IMG/VR virus record: IMGVR_UViG_2565956614_000006
Source: a virus
Lineage: Duplodnaviria; Heunggongvirae; Uroviricota; Caudoviricetes
Strand: one strand, 5' to 3'
DNA: 10,156 nucleotides
This document shows positions 673 through 9,803 of this stretch, one piece after another. The notes under the pieces were generated by a model, which did not search any database, was not told the DNA's origin, and saw nothing but the letters and a program-made list of their open reading frames with translations. Within the stretch, counting starts at the first letter, position 1. Every line of letters starts with the position of its first letter. The position numbers were made by a program, and so were the translations under genes.

Positions 673-923
673 GGTAATATTAAATCGGAACATTTACATC
701 GCGGAATGTAAAATTTAAATAAAAAGGACTCTTCCATGAGCCAAAATTCCTGAAATCTTAAGGGTAAGATAAAAGGTCTTAATCAGAATGACACGTTATT
801 ATTAATAAATAAAGCTATTCTTTCATTGCTGTGTTTTTCTTTACAAAAGTAATCCTTGCTATGGGTGGTTAATCATGCGTTAATGGTGTTCTGGTTTGTT
901 ACAAATTTATCTGAAGCAGTCAT

Positions 924-932
924 TGTTATAAT
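924..932 (+). promoter_or_regulatory. Candidate extended -10 promoter element (TGtTATAAT) for the cold-shock gene
   Basis: Sequence tgttataat at 924-932 matches TGnTATAAT; lies about 100 nt upstream of the csp start inside a long AT-rich leader, as expected for cspA-family genes. No convincing -35 found. Confidence 0.25.
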
Positions 933-1035
933 TTTATTATTTGTACCTCTTGAGATTTCCTTGTTGGTTTTTCTCTCTGATATTTTTTTTCGGACCATTC
1001 TGCCCAAGGGCTAATTTCTTCAAAAGGTAATAATT

Positions 1036-1248
1036 ATGTCTAACAAAATGACTGGTTTAGTGAAATGGTTTAACCCTGAAAAAGGTTTTGGTTTCATCAC
1101 GCCGAAAGATGGCAGCAAAGATGTGTTTGTCCATTTCTCAGCAATTCAGAGCAACGATTTCAAAACATTAACTGAGAATCAGGAAGTTGAATTTGGTATT
1201 GAGAACGGACCTAAAGGTCCTGCCGCTGTTCATGTAGTGGCGCTTTGA
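1036..1248 (+). CDS. cspI: Cold-shock protein, CspA family (CspI-like)
   Basis: 70-aa [45 protein letters not shown]... with RNP1-like KGFGFI and RNP2-like VFVHF motifs of the cold-shock domain; matches my recollection of E. coli CspI; AGG-containing RBS 8 nt upstream; long AT-rich 5' leader. Confidence 0.88.
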
Positions 1249-1447
1249 GGTAGACAATATTACAAACCATATTCACTTTAGATGCCCGTGTTGTCATGGT
1301 TCCCAGTATAGAACATCATCTTTTGATGTTTCTGACATGAATCCTTTCGGGGCAAAATGTATCTTTTGTAAATCAATGATGATTACATTTGATAATATTT
1401 CACAATACTTAAATGCCAGCCGTCTGTCGTTGGATTTAAAAAAGTGA
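1238..1447 (+). CDS. Small zinc-ribbon-like ORF (CPCC...CIFC) with no canonical start codon; possible non-ATG start or recently decayed gene
   Basis: Frame open from 1238 to TGA 1445-1447; translation ...[57 protein letters not shown] has two Cys pairs spaced as in a zinc ribbon. Only in-frame ATG is at 1337, which would split the motif. A strong intrinsic terminator follows 6 nt after the stop. Confidence 0.35.
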
Positions 1448-2957: not shown

Positions 2958-3164
2958 ATGAATAAAGAACAATCTGCTGATGAACTCTCGTTGGATCTGA
3001 TTCGTGTAAAAAATATGCTTAATAGCACCATTTCTATGAGTTACCCGGATGTTGTAATTGCATGTATAGAACATCAGGTGTCTCTGGAAGCATTCAGGGC
3101 AATTGAGGCAGCGTTGGTGAAGCACGATAAGAATTCGAAGGATTATTCCCTGGTGGTTGACTGA
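2958..3164 (+). CDS. Hypothetical small protein (68 aa), occupying the position of ynfO/ylcI-type morons upstream of terminase
   Basis: [71 protein letters not shown] with GGAG RBS 7 nt upstream of the ATG; no recognisable motif. Confidence 0.5.
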
Positions 3165-3184
3165 GCACCATAACTGCTAATCAT

Positions 3185-3352
3185 TCAAACTATTTCACCT
3201 GTGACAGAGTCAATATCGCATTCTGTCACTGTCAGGCTAATACAGAGCTGCAATTCAACTACTGCAATGTCCTCGTAATTAGGTGAATTTACAATATCGT
3301 CCTGTTCGGATGCCGGCTGCATTGCTGAAGATGAGGCATTTATGGTTCGCAT
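3185..3352 (-). CDS. Possible small acidic protein (55 aa), minus strand; speculative
   Basis: ATG at 3352 (minus) preceded by a GAGGGG RBS-like sequence 5 nt upstream; translation MRTINASSSAMQPASEQDDIVNSPNYEDIAVVELQLCISLTVTECDIDSVTGEIV; not in the ORF track (below length cutoff); overlaps a palindromic element. Confidence 0.2.
   Translation of the reverse strand: MRTINASSSAMQPASEQDDIVNSPNYEDIAVVELQLCISLTVTECDIDSVTGEIV
3193..3201. repeat. First copy of a thrice-repeated 9-mer TTTCACCTG
   Basis: Exact 9-mer also at 3635-3643 and 3712-3720; this copy abuts the palindrome gtgacaga...tctgtcac (3201-3229). Confidence 0.6.
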
Positions 3353-3488
3353 ATTTTCCCCTCATGCTCGTCAGTCCTGTGCGTAGGAAGAAACAGGACA
3401 CTCACACTAATTTGTGTGGGCATGCTGTGATGTCCTTCTGAATTATTCCTATGCCATTATGTAAAGCGCTGTATCAGATGCTCGTCAC

Positions 3489-3511
3489 GGCTGTCAGGCT
3501 GTCAGGCTGTC
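3489..3511. repeat. Tandem octamer repeat (GGCTGTCA, nearly 3 copies) immediately upstream of the cos-like site
   Basis: ggctgtca ggctgtca ggctgtc read directly; related CTGTCA(GG) motifs recur at 3223-3236 and 3662-3667. Confidence 0.6.
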
Positions 3512-3536
3512 GGGTCCTCCCGGTGGGGGCCCCTGC

Positions 3537-3557
3537 CACGGGGCGGGAGCGTCGCGG
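3537..3557. other. cos-like site: putative cosN (cohesive-end site) of the prophage
   Basis: acgGGGCGGGAGCGTcgcgg resembles phage lambda cosN acgGGGCGGCGACCTcgcgg (recalled lambda left end GGGCGGCGACCTCGCGGG): identical flanks and first 6 nt of the 12-mer; lies about 180 bp upstream of the small terminase start in a GC-rich block. Confidence 0.5.
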
Positions 3558-3633
3558 AAAAAGGCTAGTTTTTGCATTTCCATGGCGGCGGCAGCATGTT
3601 TGGTAATTTATTGATAATTAAAAGTTATTTCTC

Positions 3634-3720
3634 TTTTCACCTGTACAATATTTTTTTCTCCCTGTCATTAGACCAGTTTGCAATTAATTGAAATATATAA
3701 ATAAACATGATTTTCACCTG
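3634..3720. promoter_or_regulatory. Two direct copies of TTTTCACCTG spaced 77 bp apart between cosN-like site and terminase start; candidate cosB-type terminase or IHF binding region
   Basis: ttttcacctg at 3634-3643 and 3711-3720 in AT-rich DNA; the second copy overlaps the first ATG of the track ORF, arguing for a downstream start of the small terminase. Confidence 0.4.
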
Positions 3721-3736
3721 CCAGATGGAGTTGCTT

Positions 3737-4264
3737 ATGTCAAATGTGAGCGGGATCGGTGATGCTTATTACTGGAGTGTTTTTAAAATCGCTGAGGCCT
3801 TTGGGCTTCACCGGGACACAGTAAAAAAACGGCTCCTCGCGGCCAACACTCCTGTGGCTGCGACTGTCAGGGGGAACCCCGTTTACGCCCTGCAGCATGT
3901 CGGGCCAGCCCTGTTTAGTGTGAAGCATGAGGCAGCAGACTCTGTTCATGATCCATCCCGTATGGAGCCGAAAGAGAGAAAGGACTGGTACCAGTCTGAA
4001 AATGAAAGGATCAAGCTGGAAAAGGAGCAGCGAAAACTCATCCCCGTTGATGAAGTAGTCATCGTCTATTCGTCCATGAGAAAGGCTGTCGTCCAGGTTC
4101 TGGAGACAATTCCGGATGTTCTTGAACGCGATTGCGCCCTGACTCCTCAGGCCGTCGGCGTTGTACAGCAGGCCATTGATGACCTGCGATACACTCTTCA
4201 GGAAAAATCCTACGAGGCTTGTGCTGCTGAATTAATTCCTGATGAGGAAGGAGAGAGTCTCTAG
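3737..4264 (+). CDS. Terminase small subunit (DNA-recognition subunit; not Nu1-like in sequence)
   Basis: Immediately upstream of and coupled to the large terminase; N-terminal HTH-like segment (YYWSVFKIAEAFGLHRDTVKKRL); acidic C-terminus. Start at 3737 preferred (GGAG RBS 6 nt upstream); alternatives 3707 and 3725. Located downstream of the cos-like site. Confidence 0.65.
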   Translation: MSNVSGIGDAYYWSVFKIAEAFGLHRDTVKKRLLAANTPVAATVRGNPVYALQHVGPALFSVKHEAADSVHDPSRMEPKERKDWYQSENERIKLEKEQRKLIPVDEVVIVYSSMRKAVVQVLETIPDVLERDCALTPQAVGVVQQAIDDLRYTLQEKSYEACAAELIPDEEGESL

Positions 4265-4272
4265 GAGGAATA

Positions 4273-6372
4273 ATGGGTTTTTCATCAGCCCGAAATTTGG
4301 GAAGGGACATATCGGCAGGATTTTCCCCACCACGTCGCATGCCGATTTCGGAGGCTGTTAAAAAATTCATGCGTGTTCCCAAGGGGGCTGGTAACTCGGT
4401 GCCATGGGATCCTGAACTGACACCCTACATCATTGAGCCCATGAACTGCCTGGCATCGCGTGAATACGATGCGGTGATTTTTGTTGGTCCTGCGCGAACA
4501 GGGAAGACCATTGGTCTGATCGATGGATGGATTGTCTATACCATCGTTTGCGATCCTTCGGACATGCTCGTTGTGCAGATGACCGAAGATAAGGCCCGCG
4601 AGCATTCTAAAAAGCGCCTCGACAGAACGTTCAGAAGCAGTGCGGCGGTAAAGAAAAGAATGAGTCCACGTCGTAACGACAATAATGTCCATGATAAGAC
4701 GTTCAGGGATGGCTCGTTCCTTAAAATTGGTTGGCCCTCGGTCAACATTATGTCGTCGTCGGATTACCGGTTTGTCGCCTTAACCGATTACGACCGTTTT
4801 CCGGAGAATATCGACAGCGAGGGTGATGGTTTCTCCCTGGCCTCAAAACGTACCACCACATTTATGTCCGCCGGGATGACTCTGGTGGAGAGCTCGCCGG
4901 GACGTGACATCTGCGACAGCAAATGGCGACGTAAGTCGCCTCATGAAGCGCCACCGACGACTGGTATTCTTTCCCTTTACAATCGTGGTGACCGCCGCCG
5001 CTGGTACTGGTCATGTCCGCACTGCGGTGAATATTTTCAGCCAGCCATGGATGCCATGACCGGCTACCGTAATGAACCGGATCCCTTTAAAGCCAGTGAG
5101 GCGGCGTATCTACTTTGCCCGCACTGCAGCGGCATTATCACTGCGGAGAAAAAGCGTGAGCTCAATAGTGCAGGAGTCTGGTTGCGTGAAGGTCAGGTCA
5201 TTGATCGTAACGGCAACGTTTCCGGTGAACCGCGCCGCTCCCGTATCGCCAGTTTCTGGATGGAAGGGCCAGCTGCTGCGTATCAGACCTGGGCGCAACT
5301 GGTTTACAAATTACTGACTGCAGAACAGGAGTATGAAGCGACAGGAAGCGAAGAAACACTCAGGGCGGTTATCAACACCGACTGGGGATTGCCTTATCTT
5401 CCTCGTGCCAGCATGGAGCAACGAAAAAGTGAACTGCTTGAGCAGCGGGCAGAGCCAGTTCCTTCCCGCAGTGTGCCGGATGGCGTTAATTTCCTTGTGG
5501 CGACAGTGGATGTGCAGGCGGGACGTCATCGCCGTTTTGTGGTTCAGGTAACGGGCTATGGCAGTCGTGGCGAACGCTGGATTATTGATCGTTACAACAT
5601 CACGCAGTCATTGCGCAGTGACTGCGACGGGGAGAGCCAGCGAATTGATCCGGCCAGCTATCCGGAAGACTGGGATGTCCTGCTGACGGATGTTTTTCAT
5701 AAAAGCTGGCCGCTGGCCTCCGATCCTTCTCAACAAATGCGACTGATGGCAATGGCGGTGGACTCCGGCGGTGAAGACGGGGTCACTGATAATGCCTATA
5801 AATTCTGGCGTCGTTGCCGTCGTGATGGCCTTGGTAAACGTATTTACCTGTTTAAGGGTGACAGCATCCGGCGCGCAAAACTGATCAGCCGTACATTCCC
5901 TGATAACACCGGACGAACGGGCCGCCGGGCGCAGGCCGCAGGTGATGTGCCGCTCTGGCTTCTTCAGACGGATGCCCTGAAAGACCGGGTGAATAACGCG
6001 TTATGGCGTGACTCGCCAGGTCCAGGCTATGTGCATTTCCCTGACTGGCTGGGGAGCTGGTTTTACGACGAACTGACGTATGAAGAGCGGAGCAGTGACG
6101 GGAAATGGAGTAAGCCGGGTCGCGGTGCCAACGAAGCTTTTGACCTGATGGTGTATGCCGAGGCTCTGGTCATTCTGCATGGATACGAAAAGATCCGCTG
6201 GCCGGATGCACCGGAGTGGGCGAGCCGGGAAACCTGGCTGGAGTGTGTCCAGGACAGTACCGAACCGTCATCCTCACCGGAACCGGTATCCACGCCTGTT
6301 AAAAAACAAAAACGGAAGAAAACAGTAACTGACGATGTTAACCCCTGGCTGACTTCCGGAGGATGGTTATGA
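4273..6372 (+). CDS. Terminase large subunit, lambda GpA family
   Basis: 699-aa ORF with AGGAGG RBS; Walker A-like VGPARTGKT; CPHCGE and CPHC motifs like those I recall in lambda gpA; size and position match the GpA family. Confidence 0.88.
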   Translation: MGFSSARNLGRDISAGFSPPRRMPISEAVKKFMRVPKGAGNSVPWDPELTPYIIEPMNCLASREYDAVIFVGPARTGKTIGLIDGWIVYTIVCDPSDMLVVQMTEDKAREHSKKRLDRTFRSSAAVKKRMSPRRNDNNVHDKTFRDGSFLKIGWPSVNIMSSSDYRFVALTDYDRFPENIDSEGDGFSLASKRTTTFMSAGMTLVESSPGRDICDSKWRRKSPHEAPPTTGILSLYNRGDRRRWYWSCPHCGEYFQPAMDAMTGYRNEPDPFKASEAAYLLCPHCSGIITAEKKRELNSAGVWLREGQVIDRNGNVSGEPRRSRIASFWMEGPAAAYQTWAQLVYKLLTAEQEYEATGSEETLRAVINTDWGLPYLPRASMEQRKSELLEQRAEPVPSRSVPDGVNFLVATVDVQAGRHRRFVVQVTGYGSRGERWIIDRYNITQSLRSDCDGESQRIDPASYPEDWDVLLTDVFHKSWPLASDPSQQMRLMAMAVDSGGEDGVTDNAYKFWRRCRRDGLGKRIYLFKGDSIRRAKLISRTFPDNTGRTGRRAQAAGDVPLWLLQTDALKDRVNNALWRDSPGPGYVHFPDWLGSWFYDELTYEERSSDGKWSKPGRGANEAFDLMVYAEALVILHGYEKIRWPDAPEWASRETWLECVQDSTEPSSSPEPVSTPVKKQKRKKTVTDDVNPWLTSGGWL

Positions 6373-6581
6373 ACCAGAATGATATCGAAGCCATGATTCA
6401 GCGTTATATGGAAGCTGAAATGGCGGTGCTGGACGGAAAATCCGTCACCTTTAATGGTCAGCAGATGACCATGGAAAACTTATCTGAGATCCGGCAGGGA
6501 CGGCAGGAGTGGGAGCGCCGCCTTGCGGCTCTGATTACACGACGACGGGGGCATCCCGGGTACCGGCTGGCGAGGTTCTGA
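6369..6581 (+). CDS. gpW-like head-tail joining / head completion protein
   Basis: 70-aa ORF, ATG overlapping the terminase stop (ATGA), GGAGGA RBS 6 nt upstream; size, position between terminase and portal, and C-terminal ...RRRGHPGYRLARF (compare lambda gpW ...RRRGPAGFYV, recalled) support gpW. Confidence 0.6.
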   Translation: MNQNDIEAMIQRYMEAEMAVLDGKSVTFNGQQMTMENLSEIRQGRQEWERRLAALITRRRGHPGYRLARF

Positions 6582-8089
6582 TGGCAATTCTTGATGATGT
6601 GATTGGCGTTTTTTCACCAGGATGGAAAGCGGCAAGGCTGCGTTCCCGTGCGGTGATCCAGGCTTATGAGGCCGTAAAAACGACGCGGACACACAAAGCC
6701 CGACGGGAGAACCGAACTGCCGACCAGTTAAGCCAGTACGGGGCCGTGTCGTTACGTGAGCAGGCCCGTTACCTTGATAACAACCACGATCTGGTTATTG
6801 GTGTATTTGACAAGCTGGAAGAACGGGTGGTGGGGAAAAACGGGATTATTGTCGAGCCACATCCGGTATTACGCAATGGGGCCATTGCCCGTGACCTGGC
6901 TGCGGAGATTCGCACCCGATGGAGTGAATGGTCTGTCAGCCCGGAAGTCACCGGGCAGTTTACCCGTCCGATGCTGGAACGTCTGATGCTTCGTACCTGG
7001 CTGCGCGATGGTGAGGTGTTTGCCCAGATGGTTTCCGGGCGCATAAACAGCCTGGCACCTTCTGCCGGTGTTCATTTCTGGCTGGAGGCGCTCGAGCCAG
7101 ACTTTATTCCCATGACCAGTGATGAGAGCAACAGGCTGAATCAGGGCGTGTTTGTTGATGACTGGGGGCGTCCCGAAAAATATCTGGTGTATAAAAGCCG
7201 TCCCGTATCCAGACGGCAGATGGAAACCAAAGAAGTTGATGCAGAGCGAATGCTGCATCTTAAATTTGTTCGCCGTCTGCACCAGATGCGCGGGACGTCT
7301 TTATTGTCCGGTGTGCTGATCCGCCTCAGTGCCCTGAAAGAATATGAAGATTCTGAGCTGACTGCAGCAAGGATCGCCGCTGCTCTGGGGATGTACATCC
7401 GGAAAGGCGACGGGCAGAGCTATGAACCGGATGGTAATGGCAGAAAGGAGAATGAACGTGAGCTTACCATTCAGCCGGGCATTATTTACGACGATCTGAA
7501 ACCCGGCGAAGAAATCGGAATGGTGAAGTCGGATCGCCCCAATCCTAACCTTGAAACTTTTCGTAATGGTCAGTTGCGTGCCGTGGCGGCGGGCAGTCGT
7601 CTGAGTTTTTCCAGTACAGCGCGCAACTATAACGGCACTTACAGCGCCCAGCGTCAGGAGCTGGTTGAATCTACTGATGGCTACCTGATCCTGCAGGACT
7701 GGTTTATTGGTGCCGTCACCCGCCCGATGTACCGTGCATGGCTGAAACAGGCTGTGGCATCCGGTGTTATCAGGCTACCCCGCGATCTTGACCGTTCTTC
7801 ACTGTATACCGCGGTGTATTCCGGACCAGTGATGCCGTGGATTGACCCTGTTAAGGAGGCTGAGGCCTGGAAAATCCAGATTCGTGGTGGAGCGGCGACA
7901 GAATCAGACTGGGTACGTGCTGGTGGTCGTAATCCGGATGATGTCAAACGTCGGCGCAAGGCCGAAATTGATGAAAACCGCAAGCTGGATCTGGTATTTG
8001 ATACCGATCCGGCCAGTGATAAAGGAGGCAGTAGTGCCGCAACGAAACGACAGGAGCCGCAGCACACCGACGACCAGTCCGAAGAATAA
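6581..8089 (+). CDS. Portal protein (lambda gpB-like family)
   Basis: 502-aa ORF from the ATG overlapping the gpW stop (TGATG); the track ORF extends 24 codons upstream to 6509 but this start is coupled. Size and position between gpW and the head protease fit a portal. Confidence 0.8.
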   Translation: MAILDDVIGVFSPGWKAARLRSRAVIQAYEAVKTTRTHKARRENRTADQLSQYGAVSLREQARYLDNNHDLVIGVFDKLEERVVGKNGIIVEPHPVLRNGAIARDLAAEIRTRWSEWSVSPEVTGQFTRPMLERLMLRTWLRDGEVFAQMVSGRINSLAPSAGVHFWLEALEPDFIPMTSDESNRLNQGVFVDDWGRPEKYLVYKSRPVSRRQMETKEVDAERMLHLKFVRRLHQMRGTSLLSGVLIRLSALKEYEDSELTAARIAAALGMYIRKGDGQSYEPDGNGRKENERELTIQPGIIYDDLKPGEEIGMVKSDRPNPNLETFRNGQLRAVAAGSRLSFSSTARNYNGTYSAQRQELVESTDGYLILQDWFIGAVTRPMYRAWLKQAVASGVIRLPRDLDRSSLYTAVYSGPVMPWIDPVKEAEAWKIQIRGGAATESDWVRAGGRNPDDVKRRRKAEIDENRKLDLVFDTDPASDKGGSSAATKRQEPQHTDDQSEE

Positions 8090-9803
8090 TTCCTGGTTCA
8101 GGATGCAGGCTGGTCACCAGAGTGACGCGGATATTTATATTTATGACGAGATTGGTTTCTGGGGTGTTACAGCGAAGCAGTTTATCAGTGATCTGAATGC
8201 ACTGGGCGATATCACCCACATTAATCTCCATATTAATTCACCGGGTGGCGATGTCTTTGAAGGCATCGCCATTTTTAATGCGCTGAAAACACATGGTGCG
8301 TCCATTACCGTTTATGTCGACGGTGTGGCGGCGTCAATGGCGTCGGTCATTGCGATGGTAGGAAACCCGGTCATTATGCCGGAAAACACCTTCATGATGA
8401 TTCATAAACCATTTGGCTTTACGGGCGGTGATGCGGAGGACATGCGCACCTATGCCGACCTGCTCGATAAAGTTGAGGCGGTTCTGTTACCCGCTTATGC
8501 ACAGAAAACCGGGAAAACCACCGATGAAATTGCTGCCATGCTGGCGGATGAGACCTGGATGTCCGGTGCCGAATGTCTGGCACATGGATTTGCTGATCAG
8601 GTAACGCCAGCCGTTAAGGCAATGGCATGTATTCAGTCAAAACGTACAGAGGAATTTAAAAAGATGCCGGAATCCATTCGAAACATGATTACTCCGCCAC
8701 GCAACAGTGCTCCACGCGTACAGGATAATGAACCTGAAGCCTCCCGGACGCCAGTGCAGGCAGCAGCACCCGTGGTGGATGAAAACAGCATCCGTGCGCA
8801 GGTACTGGCAGAGCAAAAAGCGCGTGTAAACGGTATTAATGACCTGTTTGCCATGTTTGGCGGGCGTTATCAGACGCTGCAGGCTCAGTGTCTTGCCGAT
8901 CCTGAATGTTCGCTGGAGCAGGCCCGTGAAAAGCTGTTGAACGAGATGGGGCGCGAGTCCACGCCATCCAATAAAAATACCCCGGCTCATATTTATGCCG
9001 GTAACGGTAATTTTGTGGGGGACGGGATCCGCCAGGCGCTGATGGCGCGTGCCGGATTTGAAAAAACCGAACGTGATAATGTTTACAACGGGATGACCCT
9101 GCGTGAATATGCCCGTATGTCACTAACTGAACGGGGTATTGGGGTTTCCGGTTATAACCCGATGCAGATGGTCGGTGCGGCGTTCACACACAGTACGTCT
9201 GACTTCGGTAATATTCTGCTGGATGTTGCGAACAAAGCCATTCTGCAGGGCTGGGAAGATGCCCCTGAAACCTATGAACAGTGGACGCGGAAAGGTCAGT
9301 TGTCTGATTTTAAAATTGCCCATCGTGTGGGTATGGGTGGCTTCAGTGCTCTGCGTCAGGTGCGTGAAGGGGCGGAATATAAATACGTCACCACCGGAGA
9401 TAAACAGGCCACTATTGCACTGGCGACCTATGGCGAGCTGTTCAGTATCACCCGTCAGGCCATTATCAATGATGATCTGAATATGCTGACCGATGTCCCG
9501 ATGAAACTGGGCCGTGCGGCGAAATCCACTATTGCCGATCTGGTTTATGCCATTCTGACGTCTAACCCGAAAATCTCCACAGATAATGTAAGTCTGTTCG
9601 ATAAAGCGAAACATGCAAACGTACTGGAGAGCGCAGCAATGGACGTGGCATCGCTGGATAAAGCCCGCCAGTTGATGCGCGTTCAGAAGGCGCTGGATTT
9701 AACGTGGGGTCACCTCAACAGGCAGGTATATCTGAACTTGTTTTACGTGCAGGTAATGGTAATCCGAAGGGGATTACTGGTGCTTTATGGCAGCGCACAT
9801 TGA
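8034..9803 (+). CDS. ClpP-like prohead protease fused to scaffold/major capsid protein; 3' end disrupted by a deletion junction
   Basis: ClpP (S14) signature blocks [10 protein letters not shown]...[31 protein letters not shown]; C-terminal two-thirds resembles an HK97-fold capsid domain. Preferred start GTG 8034 with AAGGAGG RBS 5 nt upstream (inside portal 3' end); alternative ATG 8103. The frame ends in an implausible tail (...[28 protein letters not shown]) while another frame continues as tail-fibre sequence. Confidence 0.8.

Follow-up and report, generated by a model that had tools for sequence, protein, structure and literature searches.

In phage lambda, the cos site is arranged as cosQ–cosN–I2–cosB, and its cosB, with the order R3–I1–R2–R1, is bound by gpNu1 and IHF. 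The R-type cosB element is a well-known kind of site and is ordinary in lambda-like phages. A complex cosB contains three R sequences, of which R2 has the opposite orientation to the other two, and an IHF site that separates R3 from R2; the arrangement R3–I1–R2–R1 with an inverted R2 was described for Gifsy-1 and other lambda-like phages (PMC4669245, PMC9026076). The simple cosB of phage N15, with a single critical R3 and an accessory rR2, demonstrates that a reduced or non-canonical set of R sites, together with accessory sites of lesser weight, can suffice in lambda-like phages (PMC4669245).

Here we analysed the cos region of a 10,156-nucleotide stretch of DNA from a tailed phage (IMG/VR record IMGVR_UViG_2565956614_000006), referred to below as the window. 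By its sequence, it is a lambdoid Escherichia coli prophage of the cdtI/Tritos/HannyBb type and is 96–99% identical to these three phages. An earlier sequence-only reading had noticed three copies of a 9-mer around the cos and terminase region and had proposed that two of them are cosB-type binding sites for the small terminase (TerS).

Results

Occurrence of the repeat

The 9-mer TTTCACCTG was indeed present in three exact copies in the whole window, all on the plus strand, at positions 3193–3201, 3635–3643 and 3712–3720; a search of the minus strand of the whole window gave zero matches. The gaps between successive copies are 442 bp and 77 bp. The two downstream copies, referred to as distal (3635–3643) and proximal (3712–3720), share a 10-mer, TTTTCACCTG, at 3634–3643 and 3711–3720. 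Their 77-bp spacing, which had been taken as about 7 helical turns, corresponds to 7.3 turns, so that the copies are about 120 degrees out of phase.

Only 0.10 copies of TTTCACCTG were expected by chance and three copies were reached in none of 200 shuffles, so for this specific 9-mer the repeat is rare by chance. The 9-mer was picked after the sequence had been read, however, and with the correction that this requires the significance is lower than the earlier reading had stated: there are ten 9-mers in the window with three occurrences on one strand, and in simulations a triple of some 9-mer inside 530 bp appeared in 3% of windows under an order-1 Markov model and in 11% under order-3. The corrected statistics are only moderate, and weak from the window alone. 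The repeat by itself is no more than suggestive, and the case therefore rests on the comparison with relatives.

The cos region and the terminase genes

The cos region of the window appears to follow the order cosQ (3512–3518), cosN (3541–3552), an I2-like bend segment, cosB (about 3590–3724), the TerS gene and the large terminase (TerL) gene. The cosQ homolog, the packaging-termination subsite, is GGGTCCT on the plus strand; it is identical to lambda 48473–48479 and lies at an equal offset from the nick. No polymorphism of this heptamer was seen in 51 close relatives, whereas its flanks were variable, in line with the description of the 7-bp cosQ as highly conserved (PMC4669245).

The genome records of cdtI and Tritos start at window position 3541, which gives GGGCGGGAGCGT (3541–3552, plus strand) as the predicted 12-nt 5' cohesive end. 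It is identical to the lambda sequence GGGCGGCGACCT at 8 of 12 positions, with mismatches at bp 7, 8, 9 and 11, and the flanks ACG/GGGCGG and CGCGG are common to the window and lambda. Between cosN and cosB lies the A-tract/T-tract segment GGAAAAAGGCTAGTTTTTGCATTT (3556–3579, plus strand), which is kept in all TerS classes of the family described below, at the same position as lambda I2 (bp 18–50; PMC4856287). Counted from the cohesive end, the distal copy occupies bp 95–103 and the proximal copy bp 172–180, and the TerS start codon falls at bp 197; the values for lambda are bp 53, 114 and 155 for the R cores and bp 191 for the start of Nu1. Both downstream copies thus lie between cosN and the small-terminase start, as had been proposed.

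The TerS gene (3737–4264, plus strand) encodes 175 amino acids and was assigned to Pfam DUF1441 (E = 1.9e-44) and to PHROG 141, 'terminase small subunit' (E = 7.9e-65). It is followed by the large terminase gene of the gpA family (4273–6372, plus strand; Pfam GpA_ATPase and GpA_nuclease), a lambda-family portal and a ClpP-capsid fusion. The start of TerS is most likely ATG 3737, and not the first ATG of the open reading frame at 3707. A Shine-Dalgarno sequence (SD), GGAG (3727–3730, plus strand), precedes ATG 3737 by 6 nt; relatives with TerS 54–88% identical all begin with an MSNVS-like sequence at the equivalent codon; and ATG 3707 is replaced by CTG in 40 of the 51 close relatives. The start chosen in the cdtI RefSeq record, equivalent to 3725, has no SD. 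It had been suggested that the proximal copy overlaps the first ATG and so informs the choice of start. This does not hold, since that ATG occupies 3707–3709 and the copy begins 3 nt later, and since the relatives place the start at 3737; the proximal repeat is therefore located in the 5' leader beside the SD and not on the start codon.

The AlphaFold2 model of TerS (pLDDT 77) has a strand-helix-helix-hairpin-helix arrangement at residues 12–60, and Foldseek matched it to the winged helix-turn-helix (wHTH) domains of RacA, BmrR, BldC, Par and Xis, with high probability and weak E-values (0.05–0.7). The N-terminal domain is thus predicted to be a MerR-type wHTH, the fold class of the DNA-binding domain (DBD) of lambda gpNu1 (PMC4856287). 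TerS gave no match to Nu1 in Pfam, and a sequence search against the PDB gave no meaningful match. Comparison of a TerS alignment with Nu1 by hhalign reached a probability of 1.1% (E = 0.047), and the sole aligned stretch was the HTH-wing region. At the sequence level, homology of TerS to gpNu1 is not demonstrable and the protein falls outside the Nu1 family, although by analogy it may work like Nu1.

Candidate sites in cosB

Within cosB we could distinguish four candidate TerS elements (sites 0 to 3) and two candidate IHF sites. Site 0, GGCAGCATGTTTGG (3590–3603, plus strand; cos bp 50–63), lies at the position of lambda R3 and is a degenerate CAGCAGGTG-type element; relatives have a conserved CAGCAGCAgGTg here, and the window reads CATGT where CAGGT is expected. 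It is followed on the minus strand by TATCAATAAATTA (3604–3616), a perfect match to the IHF consensus WATCAANNNNTTR and a candidate I1 analog. This is the sole perfect match in the 10-kb window and is by itself not significant. A perfect consensus was also found at cos bp 64 in three other loci (L013, L023, L128) and at bp 62 in 569R4, and in two loci (L005, L012) it has the same offset from the ATG as in the window.

Site 1, TTTTCACCTGTACA (3634–3647, plus strand; cos bp 94–107), is a candidate R-type site that holds the distal 9-mer. Site 2, CCTGTCATTAGACCAG (3661–3676, plus strand), was recognized by homology to the elements of relatives and looks like a degenerate inverted partner of site 1; in the window, only about 7 of 10 positions agree with site 1 in reverse complement, and the alignment needs one gap. 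Its homologs read TGTCA(C/T)CTGA in relatives of the NRG recognition-helix class, and clear inverted copies of site 1 occupy this position in L098, L007, L101, L040, Gifsy-2 and PhiR40_1. The second IHF-like site, CAATTAATTGAAA (3681–3693, minus strand), has one mismatch to YAANNNNTTGATW. Its columns T178 and G179 (the TG of TTGA) were invariant in an alignment of 17 diverse cos regions, which covered five recognition-helix classes, and near it a perfect consensus was seen at −66 and −68 in L010 and L008. Site 3, TTTTCACCTGCCAG (3711–3724, plus strand; cos bp 171–184), is a further candidate R-type site and the best-conserved block of cosB, with the proximal 9-mer as its core.

In the window, sites 1 and 3 are thus clear copies in direct orientation and sites 0 and 2 are degenerate elements, with the perfect IHF consensus falling between site 0 and site 1, and its relatives show the full R3–I1–R2–R1-type pattern. 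A promoter and terminator scan of 3000–3800 gave nothing above shuffle expectation. An Rfam scan of the whole window found only a cspA thermoregulator at 890–1275, and none of its matches was near cos.

Conservation of the downstream copies

The comparison drew on some 360 related loci, taken from genomes and IMG/VR, and on named phages. Among the close relatives, defined by TerS at least 97% identical (51 sequences, 40 haplotypes), the proximal copy was unchanged in 50, with TCACCTG at −22 from the ATG. The distal copy was altered in 15: C3640G, which gives CAGCTG, in 11 of them, C3638T in three and T3642A in one, so that CAGCTG, TTACCTG and CACCAG exist as natural alleles. Either this TerS can do without the exact distal 9-mer, or it tolerates variants. 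The sequence-only reading had named a lack of conservation in phages with the same terminase as grounds against it; the proximal copy is conserved in such phages, and the distal one only in part (36 of 51). Polymorphic columns numbered 3 of 9 in the distal copy, 1 of 9 in the proximal copy and 31 of 184 in the cosB background, a test that is underpowered among close relatives; the density in the distal copy was no lower than in the background.

At larger distances, TCACCTG at −22 was also found in phages whose TerS is merely 53–60% identical overall. It is carried by NRG/NRS-class phages of Yersinia, Providencia, Proteus, Morganella, Rahnella, Xenorhabdus and Rouxiella and by phages of Rosenbergiella, and the element at this position spans at least seven genera. 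In the NRG class, CACCT/AGGTG elements are found at about −97, −71 and −22 from the ATG and often also at about −140, and the density of CACCT in these relatives is 19.8 per kb in cosB compared with 1.7 per kb outside it. When 52 distinct NRG-class sequences were used as a footprint, conserved blocks appeared exactly at sites 0–3, with unconserved DNA between them: CAGCAGCAgGTg at the R3 position, AGGTGACAA at site 1, TGTCA.CT.A at site 2 and CACCTGACA at site 3.

The 17-region alignment gave a similar picture across classes. The TG that ends the proximal copy (3719–3720) was invariant, the TG of the distal copy (3642–3643) was nearly invariant, and a conserved element was present at about −97 to −102 from the ATG, the position of site 1, in every TerS class. 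The two copies thus occupy homologous, constrained positions. Gifsy-2, PhiR40_1, the mEp460-like 569R4 and VT1-Sakai each show a repeated motif of their own at the corresponding stations, among them a repeat that takes the R3 position and two inverted copies on either side of a T-rich spacer, in agreement with the published arrangement of Gifsy-1.

These data bear on the simplest alternative, that the downstream pair is a chance combination of a 7-bp core and T-rich flanks in an AT-rich leader, with any function residing in the proximal block or in neither copy. An exact 9-mer pair did arise in about 22% of simulated AT-rich regions of 196 nt, the cosN-to-ATG length, and the 29% of close relatives with a changed distal copy would fit such an origin, as would the conserved proximal block of the HRD class, TCACCTGCCAG, which is offset from the 9-mer. 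We nevertheless regard this as unlikely, because the distal position is a conserved CANNTG-type element in every TerS class and the sequence of site 1 is strongly conserved inside each class (AGGTGACAA in at least 90% of the 52 distinct NRG-class sequences).

The motif and the recognition helix of TerS

The relation between the motif and TerS was followed in 117 distinct pairs of an N-terminal DBD and its upstream sequence. All but one of the 90 pairs with H/N-R-x at the start of the second helix have TCA(C/T)CTG at site 3, the single exception being CGCCTG. The remaining 27 pairs, with a D-R-x helix, mostly have (G/T/A)AG(C/G)TGG at this site and never TCACCTG. NRG-class TerS proteins are 72–77% identical to that of the window in the N-terminal part and 43–45% in the C-terminal part; DRA-class proteins have 43–53% N-terminal and 64–73% C-terminal identity. 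The site-3 motif therefore tracks the N-terminal wHTH domain rather than the C-terminal domain. From a weak alignment with Nu1, we infer that the class-defining residues 25 and 27 are at the start of the recognition helix. The co-variation covers only a few independent clades, and simple linkage contributes to it because the DBD and cosB adjoin.

Two other roles for the motif were considered. The first is that the proximal copy acts as RNA, with UCACCU pairing with the SD of the TerS mRNA and throttling its translation. UCACCU is the sequence of the anti-Shine-Dalgarno tail of 16S rRNA, CACCU of the NRG class is predicted to pair with the SD AGGUG at −6.5 to −8.7 kcal/mol, and the CGCCU variant of L005 would still pair through G-U. 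In the window, by contrast, the SD is GGAG, which is not complementary, and the predicted fold is different and weak (−4.5 kcal/mol); RNAalifold found no consensus structure and no pairs around site 3 and the SD in 16 diverse leaders. We therefore rejected anti-SD pairing for the window itself. An RNA-level role is quite improbable also because D-R-x classes carry a same-sense GAGGTG at site 3, which is not a complement, and the motif recurs 50–120 bp upstream in both orientations.

The second is binding by a protein other than TerS, such as a nucleoid protein of the host or a regulator of the phage, that recognizes the E-box-like CACCTG core. A CANNTG core is quasi-palindromic and generic, and could suit such a protein. 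We give this reading very little weight, because the core differs between TerS helix classes and goes with the TerS DBD, not with the genus of the host; the same motif is retained over seven or more host genera.

The upstream copy

The copy at 3193–3201 (plus strand) lies 348 bp upstream of cosN in a lambda-homologous module: window 3100–3310, downstream of a ybcW-like open reading frame, corresponds to lambda 47880–48090 with 89% identity. The sequence-only reading had suggested that this copy, which lies next to a palindrome, could be a cosQ-like or regulatory element, which would make it a third TerS site. Its exact match to the distal copy covers 10 nt (TTTCACCTGT) and it adjoins a conserved hairpin, both of which might be taken in favour of that view. 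However, the cosQ homolog is GGGTCCT at 3512–3518 and not at 3193, and at the homologous position HannyBb has TTTCACAAG and lambda, with its unrelated TerS, has TTTAGTCTG. We surveyed 72 loci, nearly all with a close TerS relative, and found the module with its hairpin in 33; among these, TTTCACCTG is present in 15, TTTCACAAG in 17 and a separate variant in lambda. In the remaining 39 loci the module that holds the copy is missing. With the same TerS the sequence is thus polymorphic or absent, and a role as a cosQ-like or regulatory site is extremely unlikely. As the copy neither follows the terminase nor resembles cosQ, we judge it to be a coincidental, polymorphic match outside cos.

We also considered whether it belongs to a vestigial second cos, as CTGTCAGGCT recurs at 3229, 3491 and 3499. 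This was rejected: the copy at 3229 is largely kept in lambda (CTGTCAGGAA, 8 of 10 positions), and the pair at 3491 and 3499 represents a tandem duplication of 8 bp that no more than 8 of 51 relatives share.

Discussion

Taken together, the comparison with relatives suggests that the two downstream 9-mers are probably the cores of R-type TerS recognition elements, sites 1 and 3, in a lambda-like cosB. Their conserved positions, the invariant or nearly invariant TG and the co-variation of the core with the recognition helix all fit cosB-type TerS sites, as the sequence-only reading had supposed. The N-terminal wHTH of the DUF1441 TerS would recognize TTTTCACCTGTACA at site 1 and TTTTCACCTGCCAG at site 3. 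IHF would bend the DNA at 3604–3616, and possibly also at 3681–3693, and so help the TerS-DNA complex to assemble, and the complex would place the gpA-type TerL for nicking at cosN, about 95 bp upstream. The overall logic would be the same as that of R3–I1–R2–R1 in lambda cosB. Binding of TerS and IHF and the roles of individual sites are deduced here from sequence comparison; on this basis the SD-adjacent site 3 appears to be the strongly constrained element, and site 1 may be a tolerant or accessory one.

The likeness to lambda extends over the whole region. Both have a 12-nt 5' cohesive end in the same ACG/GGGCGG context, an identical cosQ at the same offset, an A/T-tract segment after cosN, short repeats and an IHF consensus before a TerS start at a similar position (cos bp 197 and 191), and a TerS with an N-terminal MerR-type wHTH, in the window as predicted, followed by a gpA-family TerL. 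They differ in that the TerS of the window belongs to DUF1441 and not to the Nu1 family, and in the R motif, which is CGTTTCC in lambda and TCACCTG here. The two clear copies in the window are direct and 77 bp apart, whereas R3 and R1 of lambda are separated by 102 bp; the inverted middle site and the R3-position site are degenerate; the IHF consensus is upstream of the distal copy and not between two clear R sites; and there is an extra, strongly conserved site abutting the SD. The arrangement thus departs from the geometry of lambda, sites 0 and 2 having become degenerate in this lineage.

Phages of the Gifsy-1/Gifsy-2 type (also Fels-1, VT1-Sakai, mEp460 and mEp043) share with the window the TerS Pfam family, at 35–42% identity, the cosN/I2 block and the scheme of an R3-position repeat, an IHF-like site and an inverted pair flanking a T-rich spacer. 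Their recognition helix is different (LHRQTV versus LHRDTV) and stands in another N-terminal context, their motifs are TTCGACACTGAA and similar, and the distance from cosN to the ATG is in a shorter range (129–201, versus 196 in the window). They have no clear SD-proximal fourth site, and in the window it is the inverted pair that has decayed. The combination of one strongly constrained and one tolerant site in the window has a parallel in N15, although there the critical site is next to cosN (bp 48–59) and the accessory site lies inside the TerS gene, whereas the constrained site of the window is the one farthest from cosN.

A more elaborate version, to which we assign a low probability, is a four-site cosB used by the DUF1441 subfamily with the N-terminus MSNVS...WS.KIAEAF. 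In such a cosB, the main specificity anchor would be site 3, about 175 bp from cosN, rather than the cosN-proximal site at the R3 position. The palindromic CAGCTG, which was seen among the natural alleles, could be the intermediate by which the distal site changes its polarity from one lineage to another, and in some lineages the motif might also serve in the late mRNA as an anti-SD/SD pair that couples translation of TerS to the packaging site.

The finding leaves the current understanding of cos packaging unchanged. What it provides is a candidate recognition motif, TCACCTG, and a map of the cos sites for a widespread group of E. coli prophages, the cdtI-like phages that carry cytolethal distending toxin and their relatives, whose small terminase carries no annotation so far beyond a domain of unknown function; neither the motif nor the site map was described in the literature that we searched for DUF1441 and cosB. 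The table of helix classes and motifs across genera resembles a small natural specificity code, which could guide the engineering of packaging specificity and of cosmid or transduction tools, and could help to predict which prophages cross-package.

Start codon of the small terminase

Three in-frame ATG codons lie at the 5' end of the gene for the DUF1441-type small terminase, TerS (window 3707-3739), at 3707, 3725 and 3737. The first is replaced by CTG in 40 of the 51 close relatives, whose TerS is at least 97% identical, and the second is the start given for cdtI TerS in RefSeq. In the sequence comparison, the conserved N-terminus and the SD favour the third and point to ATG 3737 as the TerS start; the equivalent codon is GTG in the related loci L094-L096.

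In relatives of the NRG class, defined by the TerS recognition helix, the SD region GAGGTGACA (L009, L014 and others; -30 to -1 from the TerS ATG) is an exact copy of the motif of site 1, a candidate TerS R-type site in cosB; it also shows complementarity to CACCT in site 3, the other such candidate. Because of this copy and this complementarity, R motif, SD and a hairpin that may sequester the SD coincide in NRG-class phages, which is not the case in the window.

Variation at the distal site and upstream of cos

At the distal copy of the 9-mer, in site 1, CAGCTG (window 3640), a perfect palindrome, occurs as a natural allele in loci L048, L051 and L052. Site 2 (3661-3676), the degenerate inverted partner of site 1, is changed at window 3674 from GACCAG to GACTAG or GACTCG in all three CAGCTG haplotypes, versus 1 of 24 others; this association may be plain haplotype linkage, or it may represent co-adjustment of both sites.

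The region of the 9-mer repeats also holds three copies of a 10-mer, CTGTCAGGCT (window 3229-3238 and 3491-3508). The copies at 3491 and 3499 are the product of an 8-bp tandem duplication of GGCTGTCA (3489-3496), which lies close upstream of cosQ and was found in only 8 of the 51 close relatives; most of the 3229 copy is conserved in lambda as CTGTCAGGAA. A hairpin, GTGACAGA-N13-TCTGTCAC (3201-3229), directly adjoins the upstream 9-mer, and the segment taking in both (3193-3240) has a predicted fold of -14.6 kcal/mol. HannyBb and lambda have the same sequence in the two arms, the loop is variable, and no T-run was found 3' of the hairpin.

Flanking genes and mosaicism

An Rfam match to the cspA thermoregulator (window 890-1275; 112.8 bits, E = 7e-29) includes both an ORF of 70 aa (1036-1248) and its leader, and the HannyBb homolog of this ORF is annotated as a cold shock protein. 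Match and annotation thus identify 890-1275 as a cspA-like gene carried by the prophage, together with its 5' UTR thermosensor. Downstream, ClpP-type protease and Phage_capsid_4 domains are joined in a single ORF of 653 aa (7842-9803), whose 5' end overlaps the 3' end of the portal ORF (6509-8089).

The cosQ-cosN-I2-IHF segment (3493-3637) is 84-92% identical to that of PhiR40_1, 569R4 and mEp460, phages with a TerS only ~42% identical. For PhiR40_1-type phages, homology at the DNA level stops at 3637, inside the distal 9-mer and near its 5' end, which suggests a recombination boundary separating a shared cosN module from a TerS-specific cosB module. TerS itself (3737-4264 and relatives) is mosaic: the nearest relatives differ for the N-terminal DNA-binding domain (DBD) and the C-terminal part (N/C identity 77/43% versus 50/73%), which implies recombination between a cosB-DBD module and the TerL-interacting part of TerS.
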